A stretch of DNA of 64,000 nt from Burkholderiales bacterium (GCA_013044035.1 JABEVE010000004.1:7588-71587); one strand, 5' to 3'; shown: positions 23,646 through 44,216, counted from the stretch's first letter. The notes: a model not told the origin generated them from the letters alone. Numbers and translations: made by a program.

Positions 23646-23666
23646 TGGTGGGGAGGGGGACTCGAA
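23646..23666 (-). repeat. Distal att site: displaced copy of tRNA-Leu 3' end with 2-bp deletion
   Basis: TGGTG--GGGAGGGGGACTCGAA versus TGGTGCCGGGAGGGGGACTCGAA at 44130-44152. Confidence 0.9.
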
Positions 23667-24220: not shown

Positions 24221-24259
24221 AAAAAGCCGCCCCGCGCACCGTGCGTCGGGCGGCTTTTT
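24221..24259. terminator. Bidirectional rho-independent terminator
   Basis: AAAAAGCCGCCC...GGGCGGCTTTTT. Confidence 0.8.
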
Positions 24260-24339
24260 GCTGTGCGCCGCCCGCCCGGCCGCGTGGGAGTGACGACCTA
24301 AAACCATCTTTTGGCGCACTGATTTTCACAGGTGTCGCG

Positions 24340-24555
24340 ATGGAAAACGAAGTGAAACGTGGCCTGGCTGAGCCAGCAGAGGCCCGGGCTTTTTTGAGGG
24401 TGAGCAGCACCACTTTGTGGCGGGCTCAGCAGGTCGGGGCACTGGTGCCAGTGAGATTGGGCCGGCATCTGCGCTATCGCTGGTCTGACTTGGAGCGCAT
24501 TGCCAGCGAGGGCTTGCCAAGCCTGGCCGGGGTCAAAAGGGGGGGCAAGCAATGA
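24340..24555 (+). CDS. AlpA/excisionase-like HTH protein
   Basis: 71 aa, EARAFLRVSSTTLWR..LVPVRLGRHLRYRWSDL winged-HTH pattern; heads the replication operon. Confidence 0.8.
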   Translation: MENEVKRGLAEPAEARAFLRVSSTTLWRAQQVGALVPVRLGRHLRYRWSDLERIASEGLPSLAGVKRGGKQ

Positions 24556-24764
24556 GCGGTGGCGAACGCAATCGCAATCGGTTCGCCACCGCGCGGGAGG
24601 TCGAAGCCTTGCGCCAGCGCATGGCGCGGGCCGCGCTCGAAGCCTTGTCGCAGGAGGCCCGCGCCGCGGCACTTGAGGCCGCCGAGCTCGGCGACGCCCT
24701 CGGCGAAATCGTGGCCTTGGCTTGGCTGCTCGAGGTCGGCGCCGACATGCGGGGGCTCACATGA
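24552..24764 (+). CDS. Hypothetical protein
   Basis: ATGA-coupled to neighbours on both sides. Confidence 0.6.
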   Translation: MSGGERNRNRFATAREVEALRQRMARAALEALSQEARAAALEAAELGDALGEIVALAWLLEVGADMRGLT

Positions 24765-25219
24765 CCGCGCCCACCCTCACCCAAAGGCTGAAAAGCCTCA
24801 TGCGTAACGCCCGCCGCCAGGGGGGCAGCCAAGGCCCCAAGTCGTGCGCGTCACTCGCAGTTGACAAGCAGGCGCGCAAGCTCGACGCCGAGATGACGGC
24901 TGCCATCCAAGACGGTGACACCAACCATGAGCTTGAGGCCCGGCGCGACCTGCTGGCGCAAGCCAGGGCGCTGTATTCGACTTCCTGGCTCTCCAGCTCG
25001 GCGCGCTGCACGATTCGCCGCGCCCAGCAGCTGCTGGCGCAGCGCGTGGTGTGGCTGGCGCGCTGCGGGGACATGTGGGGCTTCGGCGACCTGCCCGAGC
25101 TGCGCCAGCGTGCGCTACGCCTTGCCCAGCAGGCCGAGCAGGCCAAGGTGGCGGTGCCCATGGCCGCAGGCCATCAGCACTTGCAGCTTGAGCTTTTTGA
25201 GGTGGAGGCAGCCCAATGA
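24761..25219 (+). CDS. Hypothetical protein
   Basis: ATGA-coupled to upstream ORF and to repA. Confidence 0.6.
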   Translation: MTAPTLTQRLKSLMRNARRQGGSQGPKSCASLAVDKQARKLDAEMTAAIQDGDTNHELEARRDLLAQARALYSTSWLSSSARCTIRRAQQLLAQRVVWLARCGDMWGFGDLPELRQRALRLAQQAEQAKVAVPMAAGHQHLQLELFEVEAAQ

Positions 25220-28194: not shown

Positions 28195-28231
28195 GCACTT
28201 TCCCCCCGTCTGCCCGTCCTTTTGATTTTCA
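28195..28231 (+). repeat. Right arm of imperfect inverted repeat flanking the primase gene
   Basis: GCACTTTCCCCCCGTCTGCCCGTCCTTTTGATTTTCA. Confidence 0.6.
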
Positions 28232-28232
28232 T

Positions 28233-28249
28233 TTCGCCGCCGACTGAAT
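28233..28249 (+). promoter_or_regulatory. Island motif TTCGC-N8-GAAT, degenerate copy
   Basis: TTCGCCGCCGACTGAAT about 54 nt before ATG 28302. Confidence 0.5.
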
Positions 28250-28301
28250 AGAGGTAGGCGCCCAATCAGCGCCTCCCCCACTTAACCACCAGGAACCCAT
28301 C

Positions 28302-28772
28302 ATGACCACCACTATCACCCATCCAAACCTTCAAAATCAAATCGACAACCTCGCCCGCCGAATTTATGCCGAAAATTATCTGCGTTCGCGCGGCGACAAA
28401 ATCGGCTTATTCGGAGCGCTGAAGGCCTGCAATTTTCAGAATTTCCACCAGTTTTTCGCATCGGGCAATGTGGATTATCAGAAGATACCCGAAGAAATCC
28501 AACGGGCTGTTTTCGCGGCCACCGTGGAAATCGCCCGGATCGAGGCCGAGAAACAAAACCCCGGCACGCCGCGCCACTTCCATATCACCCAGAAGCACAA
28601 CGGCGGGTATGAGATCGAGTATTGGAGCGATGCCGACCGCGCATTTATCTCGGAAACGCTGAATGCAAAAGAGAAAGCCTTGCTGCACGTTCTGCTCGGT
28701 GAGATTGCCGACCGTCGCCGAGTTAATCCGGCAACTCAATTACCCGAGCCGACCAACCCAACTCAGCATTAA
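28302..28772 (+). CDS. Hypothetical protein
   Basis: 156 aa ORF with AGGA RBS; more AT-rich than host genes. Confidence 0.7.
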   Translation: MTTTITHPNLQNQIDNLARRIYAENYLRSRGDKIGLFGALKACNFQNFHQFFASGNVDYQKIPEEIQRAVFAATVEIARIEAEKQNPGTPRHFHITQKHNGGYEIEYWSDADRAFISETLNAKEKALLHVLLGEIADRRRVNPATQLPEPTNPTQH

Positions 28773-28786
28773 ACAGGAGTATCCAA

Positions 28787-28939
28787 ATGGAAAAGAACTT
28801 GCGCTTTTGGCTGCCGATGCTGCTAACCATGCAGATTATACAAGCCATATTCATGACCTATTTGCTGTCGCCCACACCGACGCTTGCGCAATTGAATCAC
28901 GCGCACGCCGTCATTTTCAACCAGGAGCGCGGCAAATGA
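28787..28939 (+). CDS. 50-aa small membrane protein (below ORF-track cutoff)
   Basis: AGGAG RBS; MEKNLRFWLPMLLTMQIIQAIFMTYLLSP...; stop overlaps next ATG. Confidence 0.65.
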   Translation: MEKNLRFWLPMLLTMQIIQAIFMTYLLSPTPTLAQLNHAHAVIFNQERGK

Positions 28940-29163
28940 TTTACATCGAACTCGAAATCACGCAGGAAGGCCTGGCGCTGGCAACGGTAGAGCACTACCA
29001 CTCCCCCGGCGCGTGCAGCTACCGCGCCGCCCACGTCCTGCCGCCTGACCTGGCCGAGCAGGCCAAGCAAATCGGCGACTTCCTGCTGCAGGACTACTCC
29101 AAGCGCGCCAGCCTGCCCGAACTTGGTTATCAGGCGCCAGGCGCTTCGCCTGCCGCTGAATAA
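28936..29163 (+). CDS. 75-aa hypothetical protein
   Basis: ATGA-coupled start, MIYIELEITQEGLALA... Confidence 0.6.
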   Translation: MIYIELEITQEGLALATVEHYHSPGACSYRAAHVLPPDLAEQAKQIGDFLLQDYSKRASLPELGYQAPGASPAAE

Positions 29164-29190
29164 CCTCATCACATCCATCCGGAGCAAATC

Positions 29191-29388
29191 ATGTTCATGA
29201 CCAAGGCCTTTCAAAACAAACAGCAATACATCCTCGCCATCATTATTCGCCTCGCATTTTTCGCCAGCGGCCCGCTGCTTTTGCAGTCGCACCCGCTGTA
29301 TTTGATTGTCTGGATCGGCGGCCTCTACGCGATGTTTTTCCACCGCTGGGGCTGGCCGGTGTATCGCCCCGCACCCAAGCAGGAGTAA
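29191..29388 (+). CDS. 65-aa two-TM membrane protein
   Basis: GGAG RBS; hydrophobic YILAIIIRLAFFASGPLLL and LYLIVWIGGLYAMFF. Confidence 0.65.
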   Translation: MFMTKAFQNKQQYILAIIIRLAFFASGPLLLQSHPLYLIVWIGGLYAMFFHRWGWPVYRPAPKQE

Positions 29389-29391
29389 GCC

Positions 29392-29747
29392 ATGCTCGAC
29401 AAAATGGACAAAATCAGGGTGGCACATTTTCGCATCCGCGTCACCCTGTTTTGCATGATTTCGGCGCATTACTCGCGGGCGGGGGTTATCTCGCGCACGA
29501 GCAATTGCTGGCGCCTGCCTTTTCTTATTTGCTCGGCTCGGTATTGAATGCCTGGGGCGCGGGTGGCTGGTTTATCCAGCACACGCACGGCCCCTTTGCT
29601 GTGGCCGCCTTGTTTTATCGGAGCATGCAGCCGGGCGGATTTGGTTGGGCAAAAGCACTGGAAGCGGCTGGGGCAGGAGCGTTTCTCGGTCTGCTGGTCC
29701 CGGTTTCGATTTTCAGCATCAAGAAACAAGGAGTTGAAAATGCTTAA
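29392..29747 (+). pseudogene. Probable frameshifted small membrane protein gene
   Basis: RBS and ATG at 29392 are out of frame with the hydrophobic ORF 29451-29747; one extra A in the run at 29401-29404 would join them. Confidence 0.4.
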
Positions 29748-31323
29748 ATTTCTGAGGGCGCTCAAAATGTTTGGGCTGATGTTTGGCGCTGGCTTTGCCG
29801 CATATATTCTTTTTTCTTTATTCGGCCACCCTCAAGCCGGCGCTGGGATTTTCGTGGCGGCGTTTTTGCTCGCCGGCGTTTTGGTCTGGACTGAGTTCTT
29901 CGCCGCGCCGGCGCCGGCGGTGCGTTCTGGGATTCGGGACGTGAGCGAGGATGCGGCGTATCTGCGCACCCTGGCCCAGGGCTTCGACCCGGAGCAGTTC
30001 ATCGACTTGCGCAAAGGCATCTTCATTGGCCTGGATGGCAACCGCAAGCCCATCTATCTGCCTCTCCAGACGCTCGACAAAAATCACCTGGAAATCTTGG
30101 GCGAGAGCGGAGTGGGCAAGTCGTCGTTGGCGGGAGTGCTGTTGAGCCAGCTCGCTGCATCGGGCGAAGCGGTGATCGTGTTCGACCCCAAACCGGACGA
30201 GAAACTGCCTGGCGTGCTGGCACGCCAGGGCGAAAAGCACGACTTTCCGGTCGTGGTGATCGACCTGCGGCACACGGCCAGCTTCCCCCAGATCAATCCA
30301 TTCCATGGATGCCGACCAGACCAGGTGGAAGAGCTTTTGCAGGTGGCCTTGGAGCTCGGCAAAACCGGCGACGCAGGGGTGGATTTTTATCGCGGTGGCG
30401 ATCGCGAGGCAACCTCATGGATTGCCGAAGCCGTGGCCGCAGACCCCTCCCGCAGCCTGCCTGACATCATCAAGGCGGCGAGTGATGATGAGGCGATCAC
30501 CGAGAAAGAAAACCTGTGGCGCGAGCTGCGGCAGTTGGGCCGCATCAAGGCCTTTTCGACGCGCGAGCAAGGCATCGACCTGGCGGCGTTGCTAGAGCAG
30601 CCGGGCGGCGTCGTGCTCTATGTGATGGGCTCGACGACCAAGTTGGAAATCGGCTCGGCGCAAAAGCTGCTTTTGCAGCGCGTGCTCCAGGTGCTGGAGG
30701 ATCGCAGCGACAAGTCGAAGCCAGTGGCCTTGTTCCTAGACGAGCTCAAATACCTGTTGAGTCCAGCAGCCCTCAGGGCCGCAGGGACTATTCGTGACCG
30801 CAATTCGCACCTTGTATTTGCGCATCAAAGCCTCGGTGACTTGGACGACTGCCCGGGCTTGAGCCCCAAGGCTGTGCGGGGCGCGATCTGGGGTAACAGC
30901 GGCATCAAGTTCGCGTACAAGATGCTCGACAGCGCAACGGCCTTGGAGCTCTCGCGCCTGGCCGGCGCGTCGCGCGCCGACGTGCAGACGATGAGCAACA
31001 CGGCCAACGACAACGGCGGAAGCACAAACACATCATGGACCCAGGCGGCCCGCGAGTTCATGCCGCCCCACATCTTCAGCCACCTGCCCAAGCCGGCAGG
31101 TGGCGAGGCATCAGTGGGTGTCGTGTTCGGGCTTGGGACCGCGTTTTATCTGTCCACCCGCTGGCTCCAGACCGGCGAAACACCCGCGCCGTTGCGCGTC
31201 GAAGAGCCGGCCGACCAGGCCGACGCCGCACCGATTTCGCATGCCGCTGAATCAGGTCAAGAGGCACCCGAAGCCCAGGCCGAAGCGGCCCGCGCTGACA
31301 GCCTCGAAGACTTGTTGAAGTGA
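29740..31323 (+). CDS. mobB: Type IV coupling protein, CloDF13 MobB-like
   Basis: Two N-terminal TMs, Walker A GESGVGKS, VIVFDPK, Walker B LFLDE, FAHQSLGDL; directly before a MOBC relaxase. Confidence 0.8.
   Translation: MLKFLRALKMFGLMFGAGFAAYILFSLFGHPQAGAGIFVAAFLLAGVLVWTEFFAAPAPAVRSGIRDVSEDAAYLRTLAQGFDPEQFIDLRKGIFIGLDGNRKPIYLPLQTLDKNHLEILGESGVGKSSLAGVLLSQLAASGEAVIVFDPKPDEKLPGVLARQGEKHDFPVVVIDLRHTASFPQINPFHGCRPDQVEELLQVALELGKTGDAGVDFYRGGDREATSWIAEAVAADPSRSLPDIIKAASDDEAITEKENLWRELRQLGRIKAFSTREQGIDLAALLEQPGGVVLYVMGSTTKLEIGSAQKLLLQRVLQVLEDRSDKSKPVALFLDELKYLLSPAALRAAGTIRDRNSHLVFAHQSLGDLDDCPGLSPKAVRGAIWGNSGIKFAYKMLDSATALELSRLAGASRADVQTMSNTANDNGGSTNTSWTQAAREFMPPHIFSHLPKPAGGEASVGVVFGLGTAFYLSTRWLQTGETPAPLRVEEPADQADAAPISHAAESGQEAPEAQAEAARADSLEDLLK
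31236..31252 (+). promoter_or_regulatory. Island motif TTCGC-N8-GAAT upstream of mobC (within mobB 3' end)
   Basis: TTCGCATGCCGCTGAAT, identical to copies at 33321 and 38462. Confidence 0.6.
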
Positions 31324-31373
31324 ACCACAGCCCCGGCGCCGGCCGGGGGCTGTATAGACAAAGGTGAATCATC

Positions 31374-32114
31374 ATGCCCATCATCGCAGACCCCAAACAA
31401 CGCATGGAACGCGCTGAGCAAAAGAAAACTTTGCTGCTGCGTTTTTTGCGCGAAGAGCTCTACACCACGCCACATGTTGCAGCCAAGGTCATGGGCGTGG
31501 CGCCGCGCGCTGCACGGGCCACCGTGGCCGCCCTTGAGGCGGCCGGCTTCGTCAAGCGCCACCGCATCCCGCTCGTGCCCGGCCTCCCCCCCTTGGTTCT
31601 CATCGGCATCACGCCGTCAGGTCAAAGCATGGCGTTCGACCCGTCAACAGAAGTGCCCATCGAGCGCAGCTTCGAGCCCGGAAGGTTCAGCTTGAACTAC
31701 CTCAAGCACACGCTCGAAACCCAGCAGCTTCGCATCCAGGCGCAATACGCCGGTATCACCAAATGGGTGAGCGGCGACCGCATGGCTGCCGTGCAAAAGG
31801 GCATCAAAAAGCCCGACGCCGTGGCGCTCGATGCGGCCGGACGGCGCGTCGCAATCGAGGTCGAGCGCAGCGTGAAAGGCCCGAAAAGCTATGCAGACGT
31901 GCTGGCCGGTCACCTGACCGCCATGCATCAAAACAAGTGGCAGCGCGTGATCTGGTCAAGCCCAGACGCCAAGACCCGAGACCGCGTGAAGACCTTGATT
32001 CTTGCCGTCAAGCGCGTGCGAATCCTAGGCATCGACACACGCATCGACCCAGCCAAGCATCACCAAAATTTAGCGTTTTGCGAGCACAAAGAGTTCGTCC
32101 ACCTGCTCACCTGA
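31374..32114 (+). CDS. mobC: MOBC-family relaxase, CloDF13 MobC-like
   Basis: LRFLREEL N-terminus, HTL, and PDAV..AIEVERSVKG (D..ExE) motif. Confidence 0.82.
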   Translation: MPIIADPKQRMERAEQKKTLLLRFLREELYTTPHVAAKVMGVAPRAARATVAALEAAGFVKRHRIPLVPGLPPLVLIGITPSGQSMAFDPSTEVPIERSFEPGRFSLNYLKHTLETQQLRIQAQYAGITKWVSGDRMAAVQKGIKKPDAVALDAAGRRVAIEVERSVKGPKSYADVLAGHLTAMHQNKWQRVIWSSPDAKTRDRVKTLILAVKRVRILGIDTRIDPAKHHQNLAFCEHKEFVHLLT

Positions 32115-32125
32115 AAGGAGAAATC

Positions 32126-32365
32126 ATGAGCATCCTCAAGCCCAAAGCCCCCGCCAAAACCGCTGCCATGTCGCTGCGCCTGCCTGCCGAATTGCACCAG
32201 CAGTTGCAGGCCTTGCAGGCCGATGCCGACCGCGCCGGGTTCATTTTTGACGCATCCGATGTATGCGTCAAAGCCCTGGCCGCAGCGGTGAAAACTGCCC
32301 GCGCCGAACTGGCCGGCGCAGGGGCGGAACGTGCTGCGCACGACCGCCAGCAGGCCGCCTCGTAG
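32126..32365 (+). CDS. Ribbon-helix-helix (CopG/Arc-like) protein, probable relaxosome accessory or regulator
   Basis: AAGGAG RBS; AMSLRLPAELHQQLQAL pattern. Confidence 0.7.
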   Translation: MSILKPKAPAKTAAMSLRLPAELHQQLQALQADADRAGFIFDASDVCVKALAAAVKTARAELAGAGAERAAHDRQQAAS

Positions 32366-32384
32366 CCTTCCCTCCCGTCTGCCC

Positions 32385-32408
32385 AAGCCCGCAGCGTGCG
32401 GGCTTTTT
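32385..32408 (+). terminator. Rho-independent terminator of the mob operon
   Basis: AAGCCCGC-AGCGT-GCGGGCTTTTT. Confidence 0.75.
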
Positions 32409-32665
32409 GCTGTCCAGCGCATACAGCCGTATATACGACTGCTTACAGCCCTCGCGCCGTTGTCTTATGTCTTGCGGATGGCGCATGCCGACTGGCGCAA
32501 GCGGGCGGCGCGAGAAAGCGCACAAAGGCACGGCGCCTGACCAGGGTAAGCCTCCCCTGCGCCTGCGGCGCTGCCCTAGGGGGCACCGGGGAGGCCGCGG
32601 GCTGGACGCCCGCGCCCCTGCTCATTCTCCGCCCAAGACGGGCACGGCACGACCCCGCCCCTGCG

Positions 32666-32754
32666 GAGCGAGTGCGCGCGAAGCGCGGGGCTTGATTCTG
32701 TTGTTGCTCAAGTTGTGAGCAAAACGCCGCCCCGCGCTTCGCGCGCACTCGCTC
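32666..32754. repeat. Perfect 26-bp inverted repeat with nested hairpin; oriT candidate
   Basis: GAGCGAGTGCGCGCGAAGCGCGGGGC (32666-32691) and its complement (32729-32754) enclose TTGCTCA-AGTTG-TGAGCAA. Confidence 0.65.
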
Positions 32755-33320
32755 CCAAGGGGAGCTCGGCTTCGGGCGGTGAACCTGCCCTCGGCCCCAG
32801 CCTGCCCTAGGGGGCAGTCCGTGGCTCGGCTCCACTTCGCCCTGGGGGGCTCAGTGGCCCGACCTGCGCTGAGGGAACGTCCTTCGGACGACCCTCGCTT
32901 GTGCCGTGCGGGCTCTGCCCCCACTGGAAGCGCTCGGCTTGGGCCTCGCTTGCTCGGGCGGTGCAGGGGCTCGGCTGCGCTGGCGCTTGCCAAGCCATGC
33001 CCCGTCCACTCGCATTCCAGCGGCCCCCCCGAAACAAACCGGTCTGGACGACCGGCACCAGGCAAGCCGGGCGCTGCGGCCCGGCACCAAGCGCCACCCA
33101 AACGCCACTGCCAACCGTGCTTGCTCGCACCGCGCCCTGCAAGGCAGACGGGCTCCGCCCGAAGAGGGCCTGCGGCCCGATGCTTGCCCAGAGGCGACGC
33201 CCTGCGGGCGGGACGTTCGCCAACTGCAAGGGCCTGCGGCCCAGCCCCAGGCCGTGGACAAGTGACGTGCAAACCAAGGTTGCTCACTTGCCCACCGCCA
33301 CCACCCAGAGCGCCGCGCAT

Positions 33321-33337
33321 TTCGCATGCCGCTGAAT
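33321..33337 (+). promoter_or_regulatory. Island motif TTCGC-N8-GAAT
   Basis: TTCGCATGCCGCTGAAT, followed by hairpin, GGAG RBS and ATG 33382. Confidence 0.65.
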
Positions 33338-33381
33338 GCAGGTGCGGACCCCGCATTCACCTTCAACAACCGGAGCACATC

Positions 33382-34209
33382 ATGATCGACATCCACCAGC
33401 ACATCAACGCGGCACGCGCTCGGCTCGACGCCATCGCCCAGCGTCTCGGCGTCGAGCCCTTTGTCATGTACCTCGGACTCGCCTTCCTCATCACCCTGGT
33501 CTTGGCACTTCTGATCGTGCCGAGCCAGAGCACCCCACATCCATCTTTGCCCGCGCCGTTGCCGATGGCCTCGCCGCCGAAGCAGCCGGCCGCCACCACG
33601 GGTGCAGCCGCCCCAGCGTCAGCACCCGCATCCCTGATGCAAGCCGAGCTCCCCGCGCTGACCTTGAGCCCAAACCAAGCCGTTGAATCTGGGGCGTGGC
33701 AATTGAGGGTGGAAACCGTCGCAGCCGTGCAGGGTCAAGACCCCGCGACCCTGCCTGCTCAGTTGATCGGCACCATCGTGCAGTCGGCGCCCAGCGCGAG
33801 TTTTTCCGGCGCCATCCCGAGCTCGATTGCCCCGTTCATCACCCCAGGGCAACCAGCGCGTCTTGCCTACAGCTTTGACTTCGACGCCCCTGCTGCTGGC
33901 TCCTACCTGTTGACGGCTGTGCTGGGTGGCAAAGCCTCCGGCGAAGTCCGCCTGACGCTCGACGACCGGGCCGACACGCAGGTCTCACTGACTCGCAAGT
34001 ACAACGTGATCTGGACACCCGACGCGCCGCCCGTGACGATCTCATCCACCGTCAACCTCGCGGCTGGGCTGCACGCCATCAAGGCCGTGCTCGACACCAC
34101 CGCGACGACCGACGCCGGCGCAGCGCCCGTGCTCGACTTCTACATCAAGCCACAGGCCGCGAGCTTGCCCACGGCCATGGTGCCGATGTGGCCGGCGGCT
34201 CGGCGCTAA
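33382..34209 (+). CDS. Membrane-anchored protein with Pro/Ala linker and PA14-like beta-sandwich
   Basis: TM YLGLAFLITLVLALLIV; FDAPAAGSYLL, VRLTLDD, VNLAAGLHAIKA resemble PA14 strand pattern. Confidence 0.6.
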   Translation: MIDIHQHINAARARLDAIAQRLGVEPFVMYLGLAFLITLVLALLIVPSQSTPHPSLPAPLPMASPPKQPAATTGAAAPASAPASLMQAELPALTLSPNQAVESGAWQLRVETVAAVQGQDPATLPAQLIGTIVQSAPSASFSGAIPSSIAPFITPGQPARLAYSFDFDAPAAGSYLLTAVLGGKASGEVRLTLDDRADTQVSLTRKYNVIWTPDAPPVTISSTVNLAAGLHAIKAVLDTTATTDAGAAPVLDFYIKPQAASLPTAMVPMWPAARR

Positions 34210-34220
34210 AGGAGACGGCC

Positions 34221-34517
34221 ATGCGCCACCGCCTTCTCAAACTCGAACTGGTCGCGGCTGTGGCCGGGTTCCTGATCGCCGGCGAGCTGGCCGGGCCTGT
34301 GTGGGCGCTGGCCGGCGCGCTGGGGGGTTTGCTGGCATGGATGGCGCTCAAGCGCGCAGCGCCGACGCTGATCCGCGGAAGCGTGGTGTTTGCAGCCGCA
34401 TTCGCAATCGCCGCCGACAAGGCTGTTGGGCCGAGGTGGGCCTGGGCTGGCGCCGTGCTCGGCGCTCTGTTCTGGCTTGGCCTGGCCGACCTGCGCGAGC
34501 GACTGCGCAAGTCGTAG
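34221..34517 (+). CDS. Small multi-pass membrane protein
   Basis: AAGGAG RBS; 98 aa, about four Gly/Ala-rich TM helices. Confidence 0.7.
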   Translation: MRHRLLKLELVAAVAGFLIAGELAGPVWALAGALGGLLAWMALKRAAPTLIRGSVVFAAAFAIAADKAVGPRWAWAGAVLGALFWLGLADLRERLRKS

Positions 34518-34520
34518 CCA

Positions 34521-34592
34521 GATCAAGGACTTGCGGACACCCTGCGCAGCACCCTGGCTGTCACCCTGACAGACACCCTGCGGCATGCCCTG
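34521..34592. repeat. IHF-like box plus 12-bp-period CACCCTG repeats
   Basis: GATCAAGGACTTG at 34521; CACCCTG at 34538, 34550, 34562, 34574, degenerate at 34586. Confidence 0.7.
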
Positions 34593-34595
34593 CCC

Positions 34596-34631
34596 AGCCC
34601 GCCCCATCGTGATGATGCGGCGGGCTTTTTT
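34596..34631 (+). terminator. Rho-independent terminator
   Basis: AGCCCGCC...GGCGGGCTTTTTT. Confidence 0.75.
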
Positions 34632-34643
34632 GCGCCCGCTGAT

Positions 34644-34660
34644 TTCGCATGCAGCGGAAT
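34644..34660 (+). promoter_or_regulatory. Island motif TTCGC-N8-GAAT
   Basis: TTCGCATGCAGCGGAAT about 51 nt before ATG 34710. Confidence 0.6.
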
Positions 34661-34709
34661 GGTTTCGAGCGCCCGGAATCCCGAGCGCCATCCCCAAAGG
34701 ACCGAAGCC

Positions 34710-35258
34710 ATGCAAACCAAGCAGCACACCCTCATCATCATCGCCGTCGCCATGGCCCTTGCGCTGGGCACCGCCCATGCCCAGGGCATCAAGGGCATCA
34801 GCATGGACGCTCCCATGACCGCGCCAGTCCCCTCTGCCCCCGACCACGGGGCGTGGGCGCTCGACATCAGCACCACCAGCTATCACCTGCGCCAGTGGGC
34901 CAGGGACAGCCTCAATCAGGACAACCCAGGGCTGGGCGTTGAGTACCAGTACAGCCACAACTGGGGCGCGGCCGCGGGCTTCTACAAAAACAGTTACAGC
35001 CGCACCAGCGTCTACGCCACAGCCACCTACACCCCGCTGCACATCAGCCTGCCAGAAGGCTTCTCCATGGCCGCTGGCGGGCTTGCGGGCGCCATCAGCG
35101 GCTACACCAGCGCCGAAGCCCCCGACCGGCCCTTGATGGCCGCCGCGCTCCTGGAAATCCGTTCGCGGCAGGGGTATGGCATCAACCTGGTCGGCGTGCC
35201 CAACGCTGGGCAGTCGGCCGGCTTCATCGGCCTGCAACTGGTGGTGCCACTGACCTGA
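34710..35258 (+). CDS. Exported small beta-barrel outer membrane protein, PagP-like
   Basis: Signal peptide (AHA); SYH..NQDNPGLGVEY..GFYKNSYSRTS pattern reminiscent of PagP-like barrels; alternating C-terminal strand. Confidence 0.55.
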   Translation: MQTKQHTLIIIAVAMALALGTAHAQGIKGISMDAPMTAPVPSAPDHGAWALDISTTSYHLRQWARDSLNQDNPGLGVEYQYSHNWGAAAGFYKNSYSRTSVYATATYTPLHISLPEGFSMAAGGLAGAISGYTSAEAPDRPLMAAALLEIRSRQGYGINLVGVPNAGQSAGFIGLQLVVPLT

Positions 35259-35269
35259 GCGCCGCGCAT

Positions 35270-35286
35270 TTCGCATCCGCCCGAAT
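35270..35286 (+). promoter_or_regulatory. Island motif TTCGC-N8-GAAT
   Basis: TTCGCATCCGCCCGAAT just after the upstream stop codon, then hairpin GTGTGCCGGC..GCCGGCACAC, RBS and ATG 35337. Confidence 0.65.
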
Positions 35287-35336
35287 CCGTGTGCCGGCCC
35301 AGGCCGGCACACGCCAACACCCAAAAAGGAACCGTC

Positions 35337-36809
35337 ATGCAAACCAAACAACGCAGCTTCACCCTCGCCCCGCTGACCCTCGCCCTGGCGCTGGCCTTCG
35401 CGTCCCCGCTGGCCCATGCCGATACAGCCGGCGGCACGGTCTCCGGCTCTGGAAACGTGACCACCCAGGACAGCTCGGGCAACCTGGCGTCTGGCAACGG
35501 CGCCCTGGCTGCCGTCCAGAGCAACAACACCGCCATCGGTCAGCAAGCCCAAGCCAACGAAGGTGCCGCAACCGCCGTGGGCGCTGGCAGTCTGGCAAAC
35601 CAGAGCAGCACCGCGCTCGGCGCTGCGGCCACCGGCCAGGGCGTCGGCTCGGTCGCGGTCGGTGCGGGGGCGCAAGGGCTTCAAGGATCGTCAGTTGCGG
35701 TCGGCCAAAACGCAACCGCCAGCGTTGCCGGCGTCGCCATTGGTGCGGGCGCCAGCGTGCCCATCGCGCCAGGCGGCGCGGGGACTGCTGGTGTGGCGCT
35801 TGGCTATCAAGCCACGAGCACAGGGATTGACAGCGTTTCGCTCGGCGCTGGCAGCACGGACTTAGGCCTTGCAGGTGTTGTGAGCGTGGGCACCACATCC
35901 CAGCAGCGCCGCATCATCAACCTGGCCGCCGGTCAGGCGCCCACCGATGCGGTCAACTTGCAGCAGCTCGACGCCGCCGCTCAGGCCGCGCAGGTCTACA
36001 TCAACACCGCCACGGCCGGCGCAGTCACCACGGCGAACAGCTACACCAACCAGCAAATCACGGCCCTGCAAAACATCATCAACAGCGCCACGGCATCGGG
36101 CCTGTGCAAGTACAACCCCGCCGGAGGCATCGTGTGCGGCACCAACACCACCGCCGCCGCTGGTGCCGTCGCGCAGGGCAATGGTGCATCAGCCAACTAC
36201 GCCGGCAGCCTCGCCATCGGCCAGGGCGCAACCATCACCGCGCCCACTGGCAATGACGGCCTGACCACCGGAGCCATCGCCATCGGCAACGGTGCCCAGG
36301 CCAATGCCGACCCCGCAACGGCCATCGGCTTTCAAGCCGACGCGGCAGGAGCCAACTCGGTTGCTCTCGGCTACCAAGCCCAGGCCTACGGCACCAACAG
36401 CGTGGCGCTCGGCGCGGGCAGTGTCGCCAACCGCCCCAACAGCGTGAGCGTGGGCAGCGGCGCGCAGCAACGCCAAATCACCAACGTCGCCCCCGGCACG
36501 CAAGCGACCGATGCGGTGAACCTGGGCCAGTTGCAGCAAGCCACCGCTGGCCTGCTCGGCCAGGCCGACACCTACGCCGCCCAAGGCATCGCCATGGCCG
36601 CAGCCCTCGACATCGCGCCGCTGTACGGCCCGGATGGCTACAGCCTGAGCGCAGGCCTCGGCAGCTACGGCGGGCAGAACGCCGTGGGCATCGCGTTCTC
36701 GCGCCGCACGGCTTACTACCAGTACCCCGTGGCCTGGACCGTGGGCCTCGGCTTCAACGGCGGCAGCGGCGCGGCAGTGGGCAAGGTCGGGGCGAGCATC
36801 GGCTGGTGA
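35337..36809 (+). CDS. YadA-like trimeric autotransporter adhesin
   Basis: Signal peptide; Hep/Hag head repeats (xAIG/xALG); two neck motifs RRIINLAAG..TDAVNLQQL and RQITNVAPG..TDAVNLGQL; C-terminal anchor ending ASIGW. Confidence 0.9.
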   Translation: MQTKQRSFTLAPLTLALALAFASPLAHADTAGGTVSGSGNVTTQDSSGNLASGNGALAAVQSNNTAIGQQAQANEGAATAVGAGSLANQSSTALGAAATGQGVGSVAVGAGAQGLQGSSVAVGQNATASVAGVAIGAGASVPIAPGGAGTAGVALGYQATSTGIDSVSLGAGSTDLGLAGVVSVGTTSQQRRIINLAAGQAPTDAVNLQQLDAAAQAAQVYINTATAGAVTTANSYTNQQITALQNIINSATASGLCKYNPAGGIVCGTNTTAAAGAVAQGNGASANYAGSLAIGQGATITAPTGNDGLTTGAIAIGNGAQANADPATAIGFQADAAGANSVALGYQAQAYGTNSVALGAGSVANRPNSVSVGSGAQQRQITNVAPGTQATDAVNLGQLQQATAGLLGQADTYAAQGIAMAAALDIAPLYGPDGYSLSAGLGSYGGQNAVGIAFSRRTAYYQYPVAWTVGLGFNGGSGAAVGKVGASIGW

Positions 36810-37237
36810 GCCTAGACCATGCCCCGGCTGCGCCGGGGCATGCCTTCAGTGGGTTCGTGGCGGCGTGCATGGGGTCGGTGCCGCGTGTGTGCGGCGGCCT
36901 GCTGTGGGCCTTGCTGCTGTGGTCGGAGGTCTCCCTCACAACCAGGGTGATGCCTTCGGCCCGCGCTGCTGCGGCTTCGCCCCGAGCCCCGACGGGTCTC
37001 AGCCCTTCGGGGCTGCATCGCTATCACAAGGCATCGGCGTCAGCGCCGCCGACAACACCACTGCCACGGCCAAGGCAGTGCCCGGCTTTGCTCGGCACCC
37101 CAGGCGACGCCCGGCTACGCCCGGCTAAGGCTAGGCCCAGCCAGTGCCGCCCATGGCGGCAGGGATACGGCGCGGTGAGGCCGCGCCGCCAGGGCTCTGC
37201 ATCGCTGACTTGCGCGGGCCGGTTTGCCGTGGTCGAC

Positions 37238-37440
37238 CCCCTGTGTTGACAAGCCCGGCTGAAGCCGCCCGCGACTTTCTGCGCCTTTCTGGGATGGCGT
37301 CAGTCCCGCCAGCCCGCAAGCGGGCGCTGCGCGGCCTACGGCCTGTCATGCCTTCCGCAACCCCTCATCGCCTACGGCGACCGGCTTGAAAGATCGGCCA
37401 ATGAGGGCGGCTCCATCCGGGCAGAACATCAACACAGGGG
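37238..37440. other. Long stem-loop (about 33-bp imperfect stem, structured loop); ssi/Frpo-like candidate
   Basis: CCCCTGTGTTGA (37238-37249) pairs with TCAACACAGGGG (37429-37440); inner GCCCGGCTGAAGCCGCCC pairs with GGGCGGCTCCATCCGGGC with 2 mismatches. Confidence 0.6.
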
Positions 37441-37447
37441 ATCAATC

Positions 37448-37732
37448 GTGACCACAGCAAACCTCTACACCCCCGCGCAAGCCAGCCATTCCGAGCCCCT
37501 TCACGCCGAGGGGCTCACCACCCAGGCAGGTGGCAAGGCCAAACCAACCCAAAACCTGCCGTCTTTCGTCATCAATCAGGCCTTGGAATTCATGCAAAAG
37601 CAGGCCGCAGCCAAGGGCGTGAGCGTGAGCAAAACCGAGATTCTGTTCACCATCACCCAAGACCCGAAAGGCAACACAGCCAAGCGTTTTGAAGCGCTTT
37701 GCGACCTCGGCTTCAAGGTCGTTTTGAACTGA
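37448..37732 (+). CDS. Hypothetical protein
   Basis: 94 aa, GTG start just after the stem-loop. Confidence 0.55.
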   Translation: MTTANLYTPAQASHSEPLHAEGLTTQAGGKAKPTQNLPSFVINQALEFMQKQAAAKGVSVSKTEILFTITQDPKGNTAKRFEALCDLGFKVVLN

Positions 37733-37791
37733 TTTCAACCATCAACCAGGAGCACAACATGACCGCCACCAGCCCCGCCACCCTGGCCGAT

Positions 37792-37808
37792 TTCGCCTGG
37801 CGATGAAT
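37792..37808 (+). promoter_or_regulatory. Island motif TTCGC-N8-GAAT, degenerate copy
   Basis: TTCGCCTGGCGATGAAT about 59 nt before ATG 37866. Confidence 0.4.
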
Positions 37809-37865
37809 GGCAGTGAAGGCATCGGTCAGGCCCGCGTTGGCGAACTGACCCATTGAACTGAAAGG

Positions 37866-38174
37866 ATGACTGAAATGGCTAACTTGGAAAAGATGTCTGA
37901 GAACCTGCGGGCCGCACTTTCGCGGTCGGGGCAGGCCTCGATCGATCTGCACGCCTCGAATGATGACCGCGGCCTGAAGGATTTGATCATCGTTGAACGC
38001 GGTGGCGGCCAAATCGCGGGCGCGAGGCCGCTGGGCAACGTGCACATCGGAATCAATCGCGCGCCGACCACCAGGGCGCTCATCAGGGCGCAGCTGCGCG
38101 AATTGTTCGCGGCGCATGGCTTGACTGGCCGCGATTTTTTTGATGATGAGCCCATCATTTACGAATACGTCTGA
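37866..38174 (+). CDS. Hypothetical protein
   Basis: 102 aa with AAAGGA RBS. Confidence 0.6.
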   Translation: MTEMANLEKMSENLRAALSRSGQASIDLHASNDDRGLKDLIIVERGGGQIAGARPLGNVHIGINRAPTTRALIRAQLRELFAAHGLTGRDFFDDEPIIYEYV

Positions 38175-38230
38175 TCACGCAGCCCGGCCATCGCGCCGGG
38201 CATCACCAGCACCGCCGCCAGGAGCAAGCC

Positions 38231-38446
38231 ATGACCTACAAAACCATCACCCGCGCCCAATTTCTCGCCGAAGCTCGCGCGTGGGACATCAAGCGTCGCG
38301 CCATGCGCAGGGCCGCGTTTTTCGAGGCGATCTTCAACACATTCATGGCCGTCTTCAGCATCGTGTTCATCGCCTTGTCCTGCGTCGCCATCGCCGGCCC
38401 CGGCCTGCTGGCCCTGGCCGCCTTTTTCGGCATCGCCCCGACCTGA
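38231..38446 (+). CDS. 71-aa membrane protein
   Basis: AGGAG RBS; basic N-terminus and long hydrophobic C-terminal half. Confidence 0.65.
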   Translation: MTYKTITRAQFLAEARAWDIKRRAMRRAAFFEAIFNTFMAVFSIVFIALSCVAIAGPGLLALAAFFGIAPT

Positions 38447-38461
38447 TCGCGCCGCCCGCGT

Positions 38462-38478
38462 TTCGCATGCCGCTGAAT
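38462..38478 (+). promoter_or_regulatory. Island motif TTCGC-N8-GAAT
   Basis: TTCGCATGCCGCTGAAT, then hairpin, AAGGAG RBS and ATG 38530. Confidence 0.65.
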
Positions 38479-38529
38479 CACCATGCCGGCGCGTGCCGGC
38501 ACACCACACACCAACCAAGGAGCATCACC

Positions 38530-39042
38530 ATGCAACACACCAAAACCATCCTCACCCTCTCCAGCCTGGCCCTCGCCCTGGCCCTGGGCGGCTGCGCCGG
38601 CGTGCCTCCGGGCATGGGAGGTCAGTATCAGTCTTCGGCCTACAACTACAGCACCAGCCAGGCCCAACAGGTCCAGCAGGTGCAGCTGGGCACGGTGCTG
38701 GCCGTGCAGCAAGTCGTCATCCATGCCGGCCAAGGCGTGACCGGCGCTGGCGCGGGGCTCGGCGCCGTCGCAGGCGGCTTCGTGGGCAGCCGTGTCGGTA
38801 ACGGCAATGGGTCCACGGTCGGGGCCGTCATCGGCGCTCTTGCAGGCGCTGCTGGAGGCAACATGGTGGCGGGTAACGCTTACCAACAGCCCGGGTTGCA
38901 GATCACGGTGCGACTGGACAACGGCCAGACCATCGCCGTCACGCAAGCCTCCGATGTGCCCGTTCGAGCCGGGCAACGTGTCGAGCTCTTGGGTAGCCCC
39001 TACGGCTGGAACTCAACCGCCCGTGTCGTTCCCATCGGTTGA
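38530..39042 (+). CDS. Glycine-zipper 2TM outer membrane lipoprotein (SlyB/Pcp-like)
   Basis: Lipobox LGGC; GAGLGAVAGGFVGS..GAVIGALAGAAGG; C-terminal LQITVRLDNGQTIAVTQ..GQRV. Confidence 0.85.
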   Translation: MQHTKTILTLSSLALALALGGCAGVPPGMGGQYQSSAYNYSTSQAQQVQQVQLGTVLAVQQVVIHAGQGVTGAGAGLGAVAGGFVGSRVGNGNGSTVGAVIGALAGAAGGNMVAGNAYQQPGLQITVRLDNGQTIAVTQASDVPVRAGQRVELLGSPYGWNSTARVVPIG

Positions 39043-39057
39043 TCCCGACCCGCGCGT

Positions 39058-39074
39058 TTCGCATCCGCCTGAAT
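39058..39074 (+). promoter_or_regulatory. Island motif TTCGC-N8-GAAT
   Basis: TTCGCATCCGCCTGAAT just after upstream stop; AAGGAG RBS and ATG 39110. Confidence 0.65.
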
Positions 39075-39109
39075 ACCAGTGCCGGCGCAACCAACCAAGG
39101 AGCCTCACC

Positions 39110-39529
39110 ATGCAACCCATCCAAACCACCAAACCCGTCATCACCCTTGCCCTTACCCTGGCCCTGGCCGCCGCCTTCGGCGGCTTCTGGGTGGGCCGTA
39201 ACCAAGGCCAGGAACAGGCCAGGCAACAGGTATACGAGCTCGCCAAAGAAGCCAATCCACTGTGGCGGTTCGGTGGCCACCAAGCCCCGACTAAAGACTC
39301 TCAAACTCTGAAACTCAGGGTCGCGCAGGGGAATATTCGGGCGGCGCTCACCCTGTCAGATCGCTACCTGATTCAGGCCTCGAATACATCAGGAAAGGGC
39401 AGCCATGATGACCATGAGATCAAACTTTTACTTGAGGCTTTCCAAGCCCAGGACCAGGCCTACTCAATCCTGTATCAAAACATCCTCCGCCTGGCCTCCC
39501 CGGACCATAAGCCCTGGCCGATCTTCTGA
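39110..39529 (+). CDS. Hypothetical protein with N-terminal signal/anchor
   Basis: MQPIQTTKPVITLALTLALAAAFGGFWVG leader then helical soluble domain. Confidence 0.7.
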   Translation: MQPIQTTKPVITLALTLALAAAFGGFWVGRNQGQEQARQQVYELAKEANPLWRFGGHQAPTKDSQTLKLRVAQGNIRAALTLSDRYLIQASNTSGKGSHDDHEIKLLLEAFQAQDQAYSILYQNILRLASPDHKPWPIF

Positions 39530-40176: not shown

Positions 40177-40710
40177 TTACTGGCAGCTCGTTGGCAGATA
40201 TTGTTGCGGAATTGTCGAAGTGGCATTCGCGCCTGTCGAAGCGGCGGTGGTGCAAGTCCATTTGGCGCCACCATTCGTCGTTTCCATAATCAAGGTTTTC
40301 CCAGCAATGGCGCTGCTGATGCCACTTGTACCGGCAGCGTTAAATGTCATTTTCAGATCAAGGCCGTAATCAGTCCCAGCTGCAGCGCCGGCGGGAAGTG
40401 TTCCAGCAAACGGAGTTGCAGCCATGGAGTTAACATAACGACCGCTTTGAGTCTGAACATCAACGCACGTTGTCGTTGTGCAAGTGGCACCTGCAACATT
40501 AAGTGTCAGATTTTGAAACCCACCATTTGTATTGAAATATTCCATGAGTGAGGTTTTTGCGCCATCGGATAAGCTCAGGCCCTCAGCAACCTGCGCTCTT
40601 GCGGTGTATTGCATGTATTGAGGAATGGCGATGGCCGCCAAAATGCCGATGATGGCCACCACGATCATCAATTCGATCAGGGTGAAGCCCTGTTGCAGTT
40701 GTTTCTTCAT
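40177..40710 (-). CDS. pilA: Type IVa major pilin (PilA-like), island-borne
   Basis: Class III signal [27 protein letters not shown]; [10 protein letters not shown]; C-terminal WTC...LPTSC disulfide loop; AGGAG RBS. Confidence 0.93.
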
Positions 40711-40830
40711 CAAAAACTCCTAGGTGAGTTGGTTGTGTGCTGCGGCTTCTGCGCCATGAAAAACACCGGTATAGACGCTTGGCTGCAGCAGGGTTGGCGT
40801 CAATCCCCCCTGAAGGGGCAGGTGAAGTCG

Positions 40831-41563: not shown

Positions 41564-41566
41564 ACG

Positions 41567-41987: not shown

Positions 41988-42011
41988 AGCCCGCCTTGCG
42001 GCGGGCTTTTT
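41988..42011 (+). terminator. Rho-independent terminator
   Basis: AGCCCGCC-TTGC-GGCGGGCTTTTT. Confidence 0.75.
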
Positions 42012-42716: not shown

Positions 42717-43928
42717 TCACGCCCGCATCTTCACCACATCAGCCCCAGCCTTGAGCTTGTCCAGATAGTCCCCCCAGGCCTGCATCATCGCTGCCCGCTC
42801 TTCGAGGTAGCGGGTGCGGTTGTAGGCGCGGCCCAGTGGGTCGCGCACCGCGTGGGCGAGCTGCATTTCGATGACCTCGACCCGATAGCGCAGCTTCTCA
42901 TCCAGCAGGGTGCGCGCCGTGGCACGGAATCCGTGGCCGGTGACAACATCCCCGCCGAAACCCAGGGTTCGCAGCGCAGCAGTGACCGCGTTCTCACTCA
43001 TGCATCGCTCTCGCGTGCGCGGCGACGGAAACACGAAGCGACTACCACGCGTGAAGGGGTGAAGGTCCTGCAAAATCTTCCTGGCCTGCAAGGGCAGGGG
43101 CACGATGTGAGGCTCGCGCATCTTCATCTTTTCGCCAGGGATGCGCCACTCGTTACGGTCGAAGTCAATCTCTGACCACTCGGCCTGTCGCAGCTCACCA
43201 GGCCGCACAAAGAGCAGCGCTTGCAGATGGAGCGCCGCCCGGACCACTGGCCCGCCGGTGTAGCCATCGAACGCCCGCAGCATCTTGCCCAGCTCAGCAG
43301 GGTCCAGCACGGCGGCGCGATGCTGCTCCACAAGCGGCTTGAGCGCCCCGCGAAGGGCAGGGGTAGGATCAACATCAGCGCGGCCCGTGGCGACCGCATA
43401 GCGCATCACCTGGCCGATGATCTGATGCACGCGCCTGGCCGTTTCGCCCAGGCCACGCGCCTCGATGCGCTGGAGCACGTTGAGCACGTCAGGTGCGCGC
43501 AAGCCGCGCACGGACTTTTGGCCGATGATGGGGAATGCGTTGGCTTCAAGGCGCTTGATGAGGTTGCCGGCGGTGTTACTGGACAGGGTAGGGGCGCGCC
43601 TGGCGTGCCATTCCCTGGCGATGGCCTCGAAGGAATCGGAGACCACGCCCGCCGCCTTGGCCTTGCGCATGGCCGAGGGGTCGATGCCATCGAGCAACTG
43701 CTCGCGAATCTCCGCAGCGCGATCACGAGCACGCTTGAGGGACACAGCAGGATAGACCCCGAGTGACAAGGTGCGGTCCTTGCCGTGGAAGCGGTAGTCC
43801 ATGCGCCACCACATTGCGCCGTCAGGCCGCACGATGATGAAAAGGCCAGCGCCATCGCTCAAGCGATAGGGCTTTTCTCCAGGCGCTGCGCGCTTGAGCG
43901 CCGTGTCCGTCAACAGGTTGTTTGCCAT
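42717..43928 (-). CDS. int: P4-type (IntA-like) tyrosine integrase
   Basis: Arm-binding KPYRLSDGAGLF..LSLGVYPAVSL; catalytic VRPGEL, HGFR, LAH, AYNR; next to tRNA. Confidence 0.95.
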   Translation of the reverse strand: MANNLLTDTALKRAAPGEKPYRLSDGAGLFIIVRPDGAMWWRMDYRFHGKDRTLSLGVYPAVSLKRARDRAAEIREQLLDGIDPSAMRKAKAAGVVSDSFEAIAREWHARRAPTLSSNTAGNLIKRLEANAFPIIGQKSVRGLRAPDVLNVLQRIEARGLGETARRVHQIIGQVMRYAVATGRADVDPTPALRGALKPLVEQHRAAVLDPAELGKMLRAFDGYTGGPVVRAALHLQALLFVRPGELRQAEWSEIDFDRNEWRIPGEKMKMREPHIVPLPLQARKILQDLHPFTRGSRFVFPSPRTRERCMSENAVTAALRTLGFGGDVVTGHGFRATARTLLDEKLRYRVEVIEMQLAHAVRDPLGRAYNRTRYLEERAAMMQAWGDYLDKLKAGADVVKMRA

Positions 43929-44129: not shown

Positions 44130-44216
44130 TGGTGCCGGGAGGGGGACTCGAACCCCCACGCTTTTAAGGGCGGCGGATTTTGAGTCCGCTGCGTCTACCG
44201 ATTCCGCCATCCCGGC
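44130..44216 (-). tRNA. tRNA-Leu (CAA), 87 nt with encoded CCA
   Basis: GCCGGGA/TCCCGGC acceptor stem, anticodon loop CTCAAAA, long variable arm, GGTTCGAGTCC T-loop. Confidence 0.97.

Follow-up and report, generated by a model that had tools for sequence, protein, structure and literature searches.

The SetCD/AcaCD boxes of SXT/R391 integrative and conjugative elements, IncA/C plasmids and mobilisable islands such as SGI1 are shared by self-encoded and hitch-hiking elements and give coordinated 'transfer-on' expression. The conserved upstream (CUP) repeats of IncN/IncW plasmids are long sigma-70 promoter regions (hundreds of bp) under repressor control. How the expression of relaxase and surface genes is timed in mobilisable islands is, to our knowledge, poorly understood, and we know of clamp-activated 'late' transcription only from phages T4 and Mu. 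T4 late promoters are served by gp55, gp33 and the gp45 clamp (PMC2988020, PMC7892883). The late activator of Mu, MuC, is a helix-turn-helix (HTH) protein of 16.5 kDa with a C-terminal QPDLF, acts on promoters that have a -10 but no -35 element, and needs the host clamp for full activation, notably on templates nicked in the non-template strand (PMC12867686). The AlpA binding element of Pseudomonas aeruginosa is a 6-bp sequence at -25 to -20 inside the promoter (PMC9371919). Here we describe a box of about 21 bp that is repeated in a tRNA-Leu-integrated island of 20.5 kb (23651-44152) of a Thiomonas genome; the assignment to Thiomonas follows the source names of homologous proteins. The island lies in a stretch of 64,000 nucleotides (the window), from whose first letter all positions are counted. 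We read the box, with a probability of roughly two in three, as the core of a private, -35-less promoter class that would serve an element-specific 'late' regulon. No earlier description of the motif or of these Thiomonas islands was found in the literature; what is new is the box with its geometry, together with the candidate factor, whereas regulons built on an activator box of a mobile element are known as a kind.

Copies of the box in the Thiomonas island

The pattern TTCGC-N8-GAAT matched the window exactly nine times, always on the plus strand and within 28233-39074 (starts at 28233, 29145, 31236, 33321, 34644, 35270, 37792, 38462 and 39058). An earlier note on this DNA, made from the sequence alone, had listed eight plus-strand copies with fixed spacing. 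All eight were real, but the copy at 29145 had been overlooked. Other details of that note were confirmed: the boxes at 31236, 33321 and 38462 have the same 17-nt sequence, one copy lies within mobB 121 nt before mobC (the note had estimated about 120 nt), and the motif was not found on either strand of the core-genome flanks of the island. In 100 dinucleotide-preserving shuffles of the window, used to estimate the chance expectation, the mean number of matches was 0.56 and the maximum 5, and none reached the observed nine.

When all 3.7 Mb of the assembly were searched, the loose pattern had 34 matches, nine of them in the 11 kb stretch and 25 scattered singly at background rate. The genome scan with a position weight matrix (PWM) suggested by the earlier note separated the two groups clearly: with a matrix of 33 columns the nine island sites scored 27.6-45.5 bits, the best site elsewhere in the assembly 19.5 bits. 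A core pattern tolerant of the sequence dialects described below yielded just two extra, isolated matches in the same assembly, both without the context of a hairpin and a ribosome-binding site (RBS). Scans of 400 genomes of the order for the exact motif and of 185k species genomes for an exact 18-mer, both blind to the dialects, returned chance singles only. The box is island-specific and strand-specific, and the refuting case named in the earlier note, a motif just as frequent outside the island, did not arise. The nine boxes are listed below with the genes behind them; the last figure is the distance from the end of the box to the start codon.

28230..28301 (core 28233-28249), plus strand: box 1 and leader, heading u28302 (28302-28772); 52 nt
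29142..29190 (core 29145-29161), plus strand: box 2, heading a small membrane-protein gene (29191-29388) and mobB, the gene of a type IV coupling protein (T4CP; 29548-31323); 29 nt
31233..31373 (core 31236-31252), plus strand: box 3, inside the 3' end of mobB and before mobC (31374-32114); 121 nt
33318..33381 (core 33321-33337), plus strand: box 4 and hairpin leader, heading u33382 (33382-34209); 44 nt
34641..34709 (core 34644-34660), plus strand: box 5 and leader, heading a PagP-like gene (34710-35258); 49 nt
35267..35336 (core 35270-35286), plus strand: box 6 and leader with an 11-bp GC hairpin, heading the gene of a YadA-head/stalk protein (35337-36809); 50 nt
37789..37874 (core 37792-37808), plus strand: box 7, heading an open reading frame (ORF) of 99 amino acids (37875-38174); 66 nt
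38459..38529 (core 38462-38478), plus strand: box 8 and hairpin leader, heading the gene of a glycine-zipper lipoprotein (38530-39042); 51 nt
39055..39109 (core 39058-39074), plus strand: box 9 and leader, heading the gene of an exported protein of 139 amino acids (39110-39529); 35 nt

The boxes precede mobC and genes of exported or envelope proteins, in agreement with the earlier view that the motif heads relaxase and surface genes together. The mobC product belongs to the MOBC relaxase family NF041423 (2e-63). The u33382 protein is exported and consists of a signal/transmembrane segment, a Pro/Ala-rich linker and a beta-rich C-terminal domain, and the product of the PagP-like gene (182 amino acids) falls into the lipid A acylation-like family phrog_3600 (4.9e-15). 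Box 2 overlaps the stop of the ORF 28663-29163. No box was found before the genes at 24241-28194 (the 'early' genes described below), before the minus-strand pilin gene or before the genes at 41024-42682. A micro-ORF of 15 codons with its own RBS (MTATSPATLADFAWR) traverses box 7 (37760-37807), its stop being the TGA of the box TGAAT; it may encode a leader peptide or be due to chance.

Conservation, dialects and anatomy of the box

Related elements were recovered through protein searches with MobC and u33382; one related-locus search seeded with MobC returned no locus. All the elements recovered in this way carried the box; at least 12 relatives have it, invariably on the gene strand and ahead of the same orthologous genes (mobC, u33382, the PagP-like and Gly-zipper genes and others), with protein identities to the window of 43-88%. 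Conservation ahead of orthologues, which the earlier note had named as a test of its proposal, thus extends to diverged relatives. The u28302 family provides the gene behind the first box in most related elements, and the counterpart of box 3 is intergenic in the clade-2 islands. Sequenced isolates carrying such elements are Thiomonas arsenitoxydans and Thiomonas sp. X19. The related elements fall into three clades with three dialects of the box:

Clade 1 (MOBC): Thiomonas sp. X19 island A (8 boxes) and L043 (6 boxes); dialect TTCGCATGCCGCTGAAT
Clade 2 (MOBC): T. arsenitoxydans (5 boxes), L044 (7 PWM hits, 6 in later analyses), L045, L046 and L048 (6 boxes each); dialect TTCGCCACCYGCTGAAT
Clade 3 (MOBF): L047, L049 and an X19 element; dialect TTCGCAyC...sTGAAT

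The mobilisation module of clade 3 is different and comprises a TrwC relaxase, a TrwB-like T4CP and an AAA+ ATPase. Two of the dialects share one cell, that of Thiomonas sp. X19, whose genome (G014) contained 20 boxes on one strand, while the opposite strand and a reversed-pattern control gave no match:

C1 of X19, at 3.056-3.066, 3.679-3.690, 3.720-3.737 and 4.332-4.333 Mb: box clusters, whose 20 boxes all share one chromosomal strand

These clusters correspond to two MOBC-type islands (one without mobB, mobC and u33382), one element with a MOBF/TrwC relaxase, a T4CP and an AAA-ATPase, and one remnant, which adjoins a lone PagP-like gene. The MOBF/TrwC element has a different box dialect, and a box also heads its ParA gene. 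None of the four clusters has genes of a type IV secretion system (T4SS).

The PagP-like gene is among the few genes kept across MOBC and MOBF box-bearing elements, and this suggests that remodelling of the outer membrane is part of the transfer programme. In clade 2 the box of this gene ends in CTGAAG instead of CTGAAT (L044 11773, L045 8857, L046 11799, L048 11819 and G780 19701), a conserved change that may tune promoter strength. By tblastn, u33382 was the only protein found in every element type (window 33382-34209; L047 6891-9171; L049 33-1938). Its gene stands immediately before an AAA_5/AAA_2 ATPase gene and the T4CP gene in the MOBF elements, a neighbourhood that hints at a role in the transfer apparatus.

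The footprint of the box was determined from 58 unique sites pooled across elements. Information was confined to positions -2 to +18 (CAT-TTCGC-mwscc-GCTGAAT-a, about 21 bp). Further downstream, position 23 was a pyrimidine and position 24 a purine, each in 57 of the 58 sites, and positions 26-28 were G-rich; the flanks were flat, including the region where a -35 element would fall. Positions 13-24 are about 59% A+T in a genome of 64% G+C. The box is followed, 1-7 nt on, by a GC stem-loop whose sequence varies from site to site, then by a C/A-rich linker, an AGGAG-type RBS and the start codon. Across elements the distance from box end to ATG had a median of 48 nt and was 40-60 nt in 39 of 62 sites. 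GC hairpins, reported in the earlier note, were seen after most copies; they begin at positions 22-25, and their stability exceeds that of random 36-mers taken from the same loci (mean -11.6 versus -8.9 kcal/mol, p about 1e-5). When ten orthologous u33382 leaders were aligned, conservation was limited to the box, the RBS, the ATG and the arms of the hairpin, in which changes were compensatory. In an Rfam covariance scan tRNA-Leu alone passed, and the boxes had no match at E<=1.

The box as a probable promoter core: candidate factors and rival readings

In seven of nine elements the box of the PagP-like gene comes 12-32 nt after the end of a typical intrinsic terminator such as CCCCGCTTCGGCGGGG-TTTTTT, and in L047 one box stands after two opposite-strand genes. 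The two intrinsic terminators within the array of the window are:

32385..32412, plus strand: intrinsic terminator behind mobC, AAGCCCGCAGCGTGCGGGCTT and a T-run, separated from box 4 by about 0.9 kb of non-coding DNA
34582..34631, plus strand: intrinsic terminator consisting of a long GC hairpin and TTTTTT, ending 12 nt before box 5

Since there is neither room nor conserved sequence for another promoter between terminator and box, transcription probably starts at the box itself. The shortest box-to-ATG distances are 29-35 nt, RBS included, so that the start site would be located not more than about 15 nt from the box. The pyrimidine-purine step at positions 23-24 follows GAAT by 6-7 nt, which is the usual distance between a -10 element and +1. 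This would place CTGAAT at -12 to -7, the GC at -13/-12 and TTCGC at -23 to -19. The earlier note had compared the copies to the co-regulated promoter sets of SetCD/AcaCD. The idea of a conserved, island-specific set was upheld, but the box looks like a promoter core (about -27 to +1) and not like an upstream activator site.

Two known promoter classes were considered and rejected. A sigma-70 promoter is contradicted by the lack of -35 information in the 58 sites and by T instead of A at the putative -11 position, and none of nine consensus-scan hits coincided with a box. A sigma-54 promoter would have the GC at -13/-12 that is present here (G11 in 47/58 and C12 in 52/58 sites), but positions -25/-24 are A (45/58) and T (57/58), not GG. 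No sigma consensus known to us accommodates this architecture, with its lack of a -35, its conservation from -27 to -7 and its T at -11, which implies an unrecognised specificity factor.

The box would be read on double-stranded DNA, in a family of T4SS-less mobilisable elements of Thiomonas and other acid-mine-drainage bacteria. Its upstream half (CAT-TTCGC-mwscc, about -27 to -13) would act as the specificity determinant in place of a -35 element, and its downstream half (C12-T-G-A-A-T17, the AT-richer 6-nt stretch and pyrimidine23-purine24) would provide the melting region and the start site, the purine being +1. The transcript would begin within a few nucleotides of the GC stem-loop and continue into the C/A-rich linker and a strong RBS. 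Hairpins at the 5' end of mRNA protect against 5'-end-dependent decay, and by analogy we infer a 5'-stabilising role for the hairpins at the boxes. The nine boxes would define a 'late' regulon consisting of u28302, mobB, the mobC relaxase gene, u33382 and the genes of the PagP-like, YadA-like, Gly-zipper and other small exported proteins. It would be separate from a box-less 'early' module, which comprises the AlpA/Xis-like HTH protein, an orphan HTH protein and replication genes and would make an element-encoded factor recognising the box. The features outside the box array that bear on this proposal are:

23651..23666, no strand: attL, 16-nt direct repeat (GGGAGGGGGACTCGAA) of the 3' end of tRNA-Leu; left edge of the island
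24241..24555, plus strand: early module gene 1, AlpA/Xis-like HTH_17 protein of 104 amino acids (Pfam HTH_17, 3.7e-5; PHROG excisionase/regulator); no box upstream
24758..25219, plus strand: early module gene 2, orphan HTH protein of 153 amino acids (unk24722 family), with recognition helix RCTIRRAQQ and C-terminal QLELF
25216-26118, plus strand: RepA-like AAA_25 helicase (Pfam); early module, box-less
26090-27220, plus strand: RepC-like initiator (Pfam); early module, box-less
27217-28194, plus strand: Toprim/DUF3991 primase (Pfam); early module, box-less
42717..43928, minus strand: tyrosine integrase (Arm-DNA-bind_3, Phage_int_M, Phage_integrase)
44130..44216, minus strand: tRNA-Leu(CAA), whose 3' end (44137-44152) is attR, the right edge of the island

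The 16-nt att repeats at tRNA-Leu, the tyrosine integrase, the MobC relaxase, the MobB T4CP and the lack of a T4SS identify the island as an integrative mobilisable element (IME); Pfam/NCBIfam scans of the island proteins gave no VirB4-like or other T4SS match. The island also carries, on the minus strand, a gene of a PilA-like type IV pilin (40177-40713; Pilin 3.6e-15, N_methyl 5.8e-10), cargo peculiar to this island and absent from all related elements. A relationship of the box to DNA uptake sequences (DUS) of the Neisseria type, considered because of ATGCCGCTGAA in clade-1 boxes and the island pilin, was rejected. The resemblance concerns variable positions inside the box and does not extend to dialects 2 and 3, the box is restricted to the island without genome-wide over-representation, and the pilin is missing from the relatives; the resemblance of the clade-1 boxes is coincidental.

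Only u33382 and members of the early module were common to all element types. As a regulator u33382 was ruled out, being an exported protein with a Pro/Ala linker and a beta-domain. In related elements the early module has the order AlpA/Xis-like HTH gene (about 100 amino acids), orphan HTH gene, replication genes, first box, and the orphan gene was always found between the AlpA/Xis-like gene and the replication genes. The orphan family was detected in the window, in three elements of G014, in G780 and in L044-L048, including the MOBF element L047. It is small (about 150 amino acids, about 50 cluster representatives among 15 billion proteins) and had no match in Pfam, NCBIfam, PHROGs, a PDB sequence search or Foldseek. 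Of two AlphaFold2 models of the protein, the first was poor (predicted local distance difference test, pLDDT, 59) and the second usable (pLDDT 77); the family is predicted to contain a helix-turn-helix (pLDDT above 90) with the signature DT..LA...G[ILV]T.RR.QQI. In 42 of 48 representatives the C-terminus has the sequence G-Q-x-[DSEV]-L-[FL], within the broader pattern Q-x-x-L-[FLMIW], followed by acidic residues. This tail fits the beta-clamp-binding consensus QL[SD]LF (PMC12867686), clamp binding itself being predicted only. On the basis of co-occurrence, the orphan HTH protein (24758-25219) is the first candidate for the box-specific factor, with a chance that we put somewhat short of even. 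The AlpA/Xis-like HTH_17 protein is the second candidate, and a rather unlikely one. The AlpA/Xis-like proteins of clade-2 and MOBF elements (L044 3666-3980, L047 4385-4678) end in an AT-hook-like RGRPRK/PGRPRK, which the HTH_17 protein of the window does not have.

It is conceivable, but quite unlikely, that the boxes are promoters which the orphan HTH protein fires through the beta sliding clamp of the host. Once the island is excised, clamps loaded on it at replication or at nicking of oriT would slide to the co-oriented boxes, where the QLxLF tail would couple them to RNA polymerase, and relaxase and envelope genes would fire only on replicating or nicked island DNA.

Several observations count against the promoter reading or against its candidate factor. 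With T in place of the near-essential A at -11, CTGAAT departs from a normal -10 element of sigma-70, and the box matches none of the known sigma consensus sequences. In roughly half of the sites the predicted stem runs 1-4 nt upstream of the proposed +1. The genes of the array share one orientation, and strand bias alone cannot separate readings at the level of DNA, RNA or single strands; we infer both start site and promoter activity from sequence comparison. The orphan HTH family is tied to the box by co-occurrence only. A correspondence between dialect and recognition helix is suggestive in three clades but is broken by G780, which combines a clade-2 box with a different helix, and distant members of the family in G1062 and G1143 sit in unrelated contexts without boxes and without any de novo repeated gapped word. 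No orphan HTH member was detectable in L043, where the left arm is interrupted by IS21. In this island from a mine-drainage metagenome, an IS21-family element with IstB and rve transposase genes (870-3220) splits the early module.

Of the rival explanations, the one that survives best keeps the promoter box but has the activator supplied by a co-resident helper conjugative element, so that transfer genes would fire only when a T4SS helper is present. The islands encode a relaxase and a T4CP but, lacking a T4SS of their own, need the mating channel of a helper, and the sharing of the box by unrelated mobilisation modules (MOBC and MOBF/TrwC) is consistent with a shared signal. Nevertheless, we consider this explanation distinctly unlikely, since no box or dialect was found outside the island in its genome (G000), every box-bearing element found is without T4SS genes, plasmids in PLSDB encode no relative of u33382 or of the orphan HTH family, and dialects differ between elements of one cell. 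The suggestion of the earlier note that a helper element may switch on the boxes has so far not been borne out for these reasons, although the assembly is 95% complete and a helper could have escaped detection. The lack of any other box-bearing element in the genome and of T4SS genes in the elements found, together with the coexistence of dialects, favours an element-encoded factor over one of host or helper; most likely, recognition of the box needs such a factor from the early module.

Alternatively, box and hairpin could be transcribed as part of a long polycistronic mRNA and act at the RNA level, either in processing or stabilisation or as the target of an RNA-binding regulator of translation. 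Such a role would agree with the strict sense-strand location, with the hairpin that always follows and keeps its structure while its sequence varies, and with the fixed distance to the RBS. In addition, complementarity between the box interior and the downstream flank was weakly better for cognate than for swapped pairs (permutation p=0.03). This pairing, which was also considered as a riboswitch-like device and rejected, was not significant in the stricter test limited to different interiors (p=0.19), and no Rfam family was found at the boxes. The RNA explanation appears improbable in view of the conserved terminators, which end 12-32 nt upstream of one box in seven elements and leave no space for another promoter; the sharp 5' edge of conservation and the invariant pyrimidine-purine step also suit a start site.

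A signal read on single-stranded DNA, in the transferred or lagging strand, either an ssi (single-strand initiation) priming site for the primase or a guide for the T4CP translocase resembling the FtsK-orienting polar sequences (KOPS), is very improbable. Location of all copies on one strand, the hairpin after each and the presence of genes for a Toprim primase and an FtsK-like T4CP in the island would be compatible with it. The primase, however, is absent from clade-2 and MOBF elements that retain the box, no relationship is detectable between the T4CPs of the two element types, and polar or priming signals need not sit 44-52 nt before start codons or head the same orthologues. Finally, the idea that the boxes are functionless remnants of duplicated 5' regions of paralogous secreted-protein genes, several of which do share similar leader peptides (MQTKQ..., MQHTK...) and leaders, is scarcely credible, because across diverged elements only box, hairpin arms, RBS and ATG are conserved, conservation collapses right outside the box in the 58 sites, and the box also heads unrelated genes (mobC, ParA, the TrwC operon, the PagP-like gene) and is kept where proteins are about 45-60% identical and even within the mobB coding sequence.

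A cis-element of about 21 bp that can be searched by computer thus marks a family of T4SS-less elements, MOBC as well as MOBF, in acid-mine-drainage bacteria. If the promoter reading is correct, it delimits a late regulon in which envelope-remodelling genes (PagP-like, YadA-like, glycine-zipper lipoproteins) are co-regulated with the relaxase. Should the clamp version hold, clamp-activated late transcription would extend beyond phages T4 and Mu to integrative mobilisable or conjugative elements, with an unrelated protein family and a new promoter architecture.

Comparison with known systems

The island box resembles the SetCD/AcaCD boxes in being a short conserved sequence that heads transfer genes across an element family. 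It differs from them by its unrelated sequence and by its location in the core-promoter position instead of the -35 or upstream region; no box-bearing helper was found, and Pfam/NCBIfam scans of the tested island ORFs gave no FlhC/FlhD hits. As with the CUP repeats, repeated conserved upstream promoter regions head several genes, but the island element is a 21-bp core-promoter box.

The two blocks one helical turn apart, the G-C at the putative -13/-12 position, the rigid spacing and the lack of a -35 element are reminiscent of sigma-54 (-24/-12) promoters, but at -25/-24, where these typically have GG, nearly all sites have A-T. In P. aeruginosa, AlpA, also a small HTH protein of a mobile module, reads the same zone that is occupied by TTCGC in the island box, and the box elements begin with an AlpA/Xis-like HTH gene. 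Unlike the P. aeruginosa system, in which AlpA is a Q-like antiterminator acting with a sigma-70 promoter and a downstream pause site, the island has no -35/-10 pair, and its boxes stand after terminators.

T4 late promoters (PMC2988020, PMC7892883) are similar in being -35-less, in having an extended motif in the -10 region and in occurring in many co-regulated copies; the island box GCTGAATA and the T4 late motif TATAAATA share ..T.AATA. A T4-like link to the clamp may be provided by the clamp-binding-like tail of the island factor. Differences are that no homologue of the sigma-like gp55/gp33 was detected, that the island box has an extra conserved upstream half, and that the clamp would be that of the host instead of an element-encoded one.

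A parallel is found in the Mor- and C-activated promoters of phage Mu. Like the proposed island promoters, they are co-oriented mobile-element promoters with a -10-like element and no -35, they are placed right after terminators as is the box of the island PagP-like gene, and they depend on small element-encoded HTH activators (about 140-150 amino acids), as the boxes may do. The C-terminal part of the candidate island factor is laid out as in MuC, where the HTH is followed by a short linker, a Q-x-[DE]-L-F motif and an acidic tail that is also short. Twelve members of the orphan family gave no hit to PF08765, the Mor/C family, at E<=10, and hhalign placed the HTH-linker-QxxLF part of the family profile on the C-terminal 40 residues of MuC in a comparison with MuC/Mor, with a probability of 2% and an E value of 0.025. 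The orphan HTH family is therefore best described by its layout as an architectural analogue of Mor/C, homology being not demonstrable. In contrast to the MuC sites, which are dyads (TTAT-N5-6-ATAA) upstream of the -10 element, the island box is asymmetric and contiguous with its -10-like element, spanning about -27 to -7.

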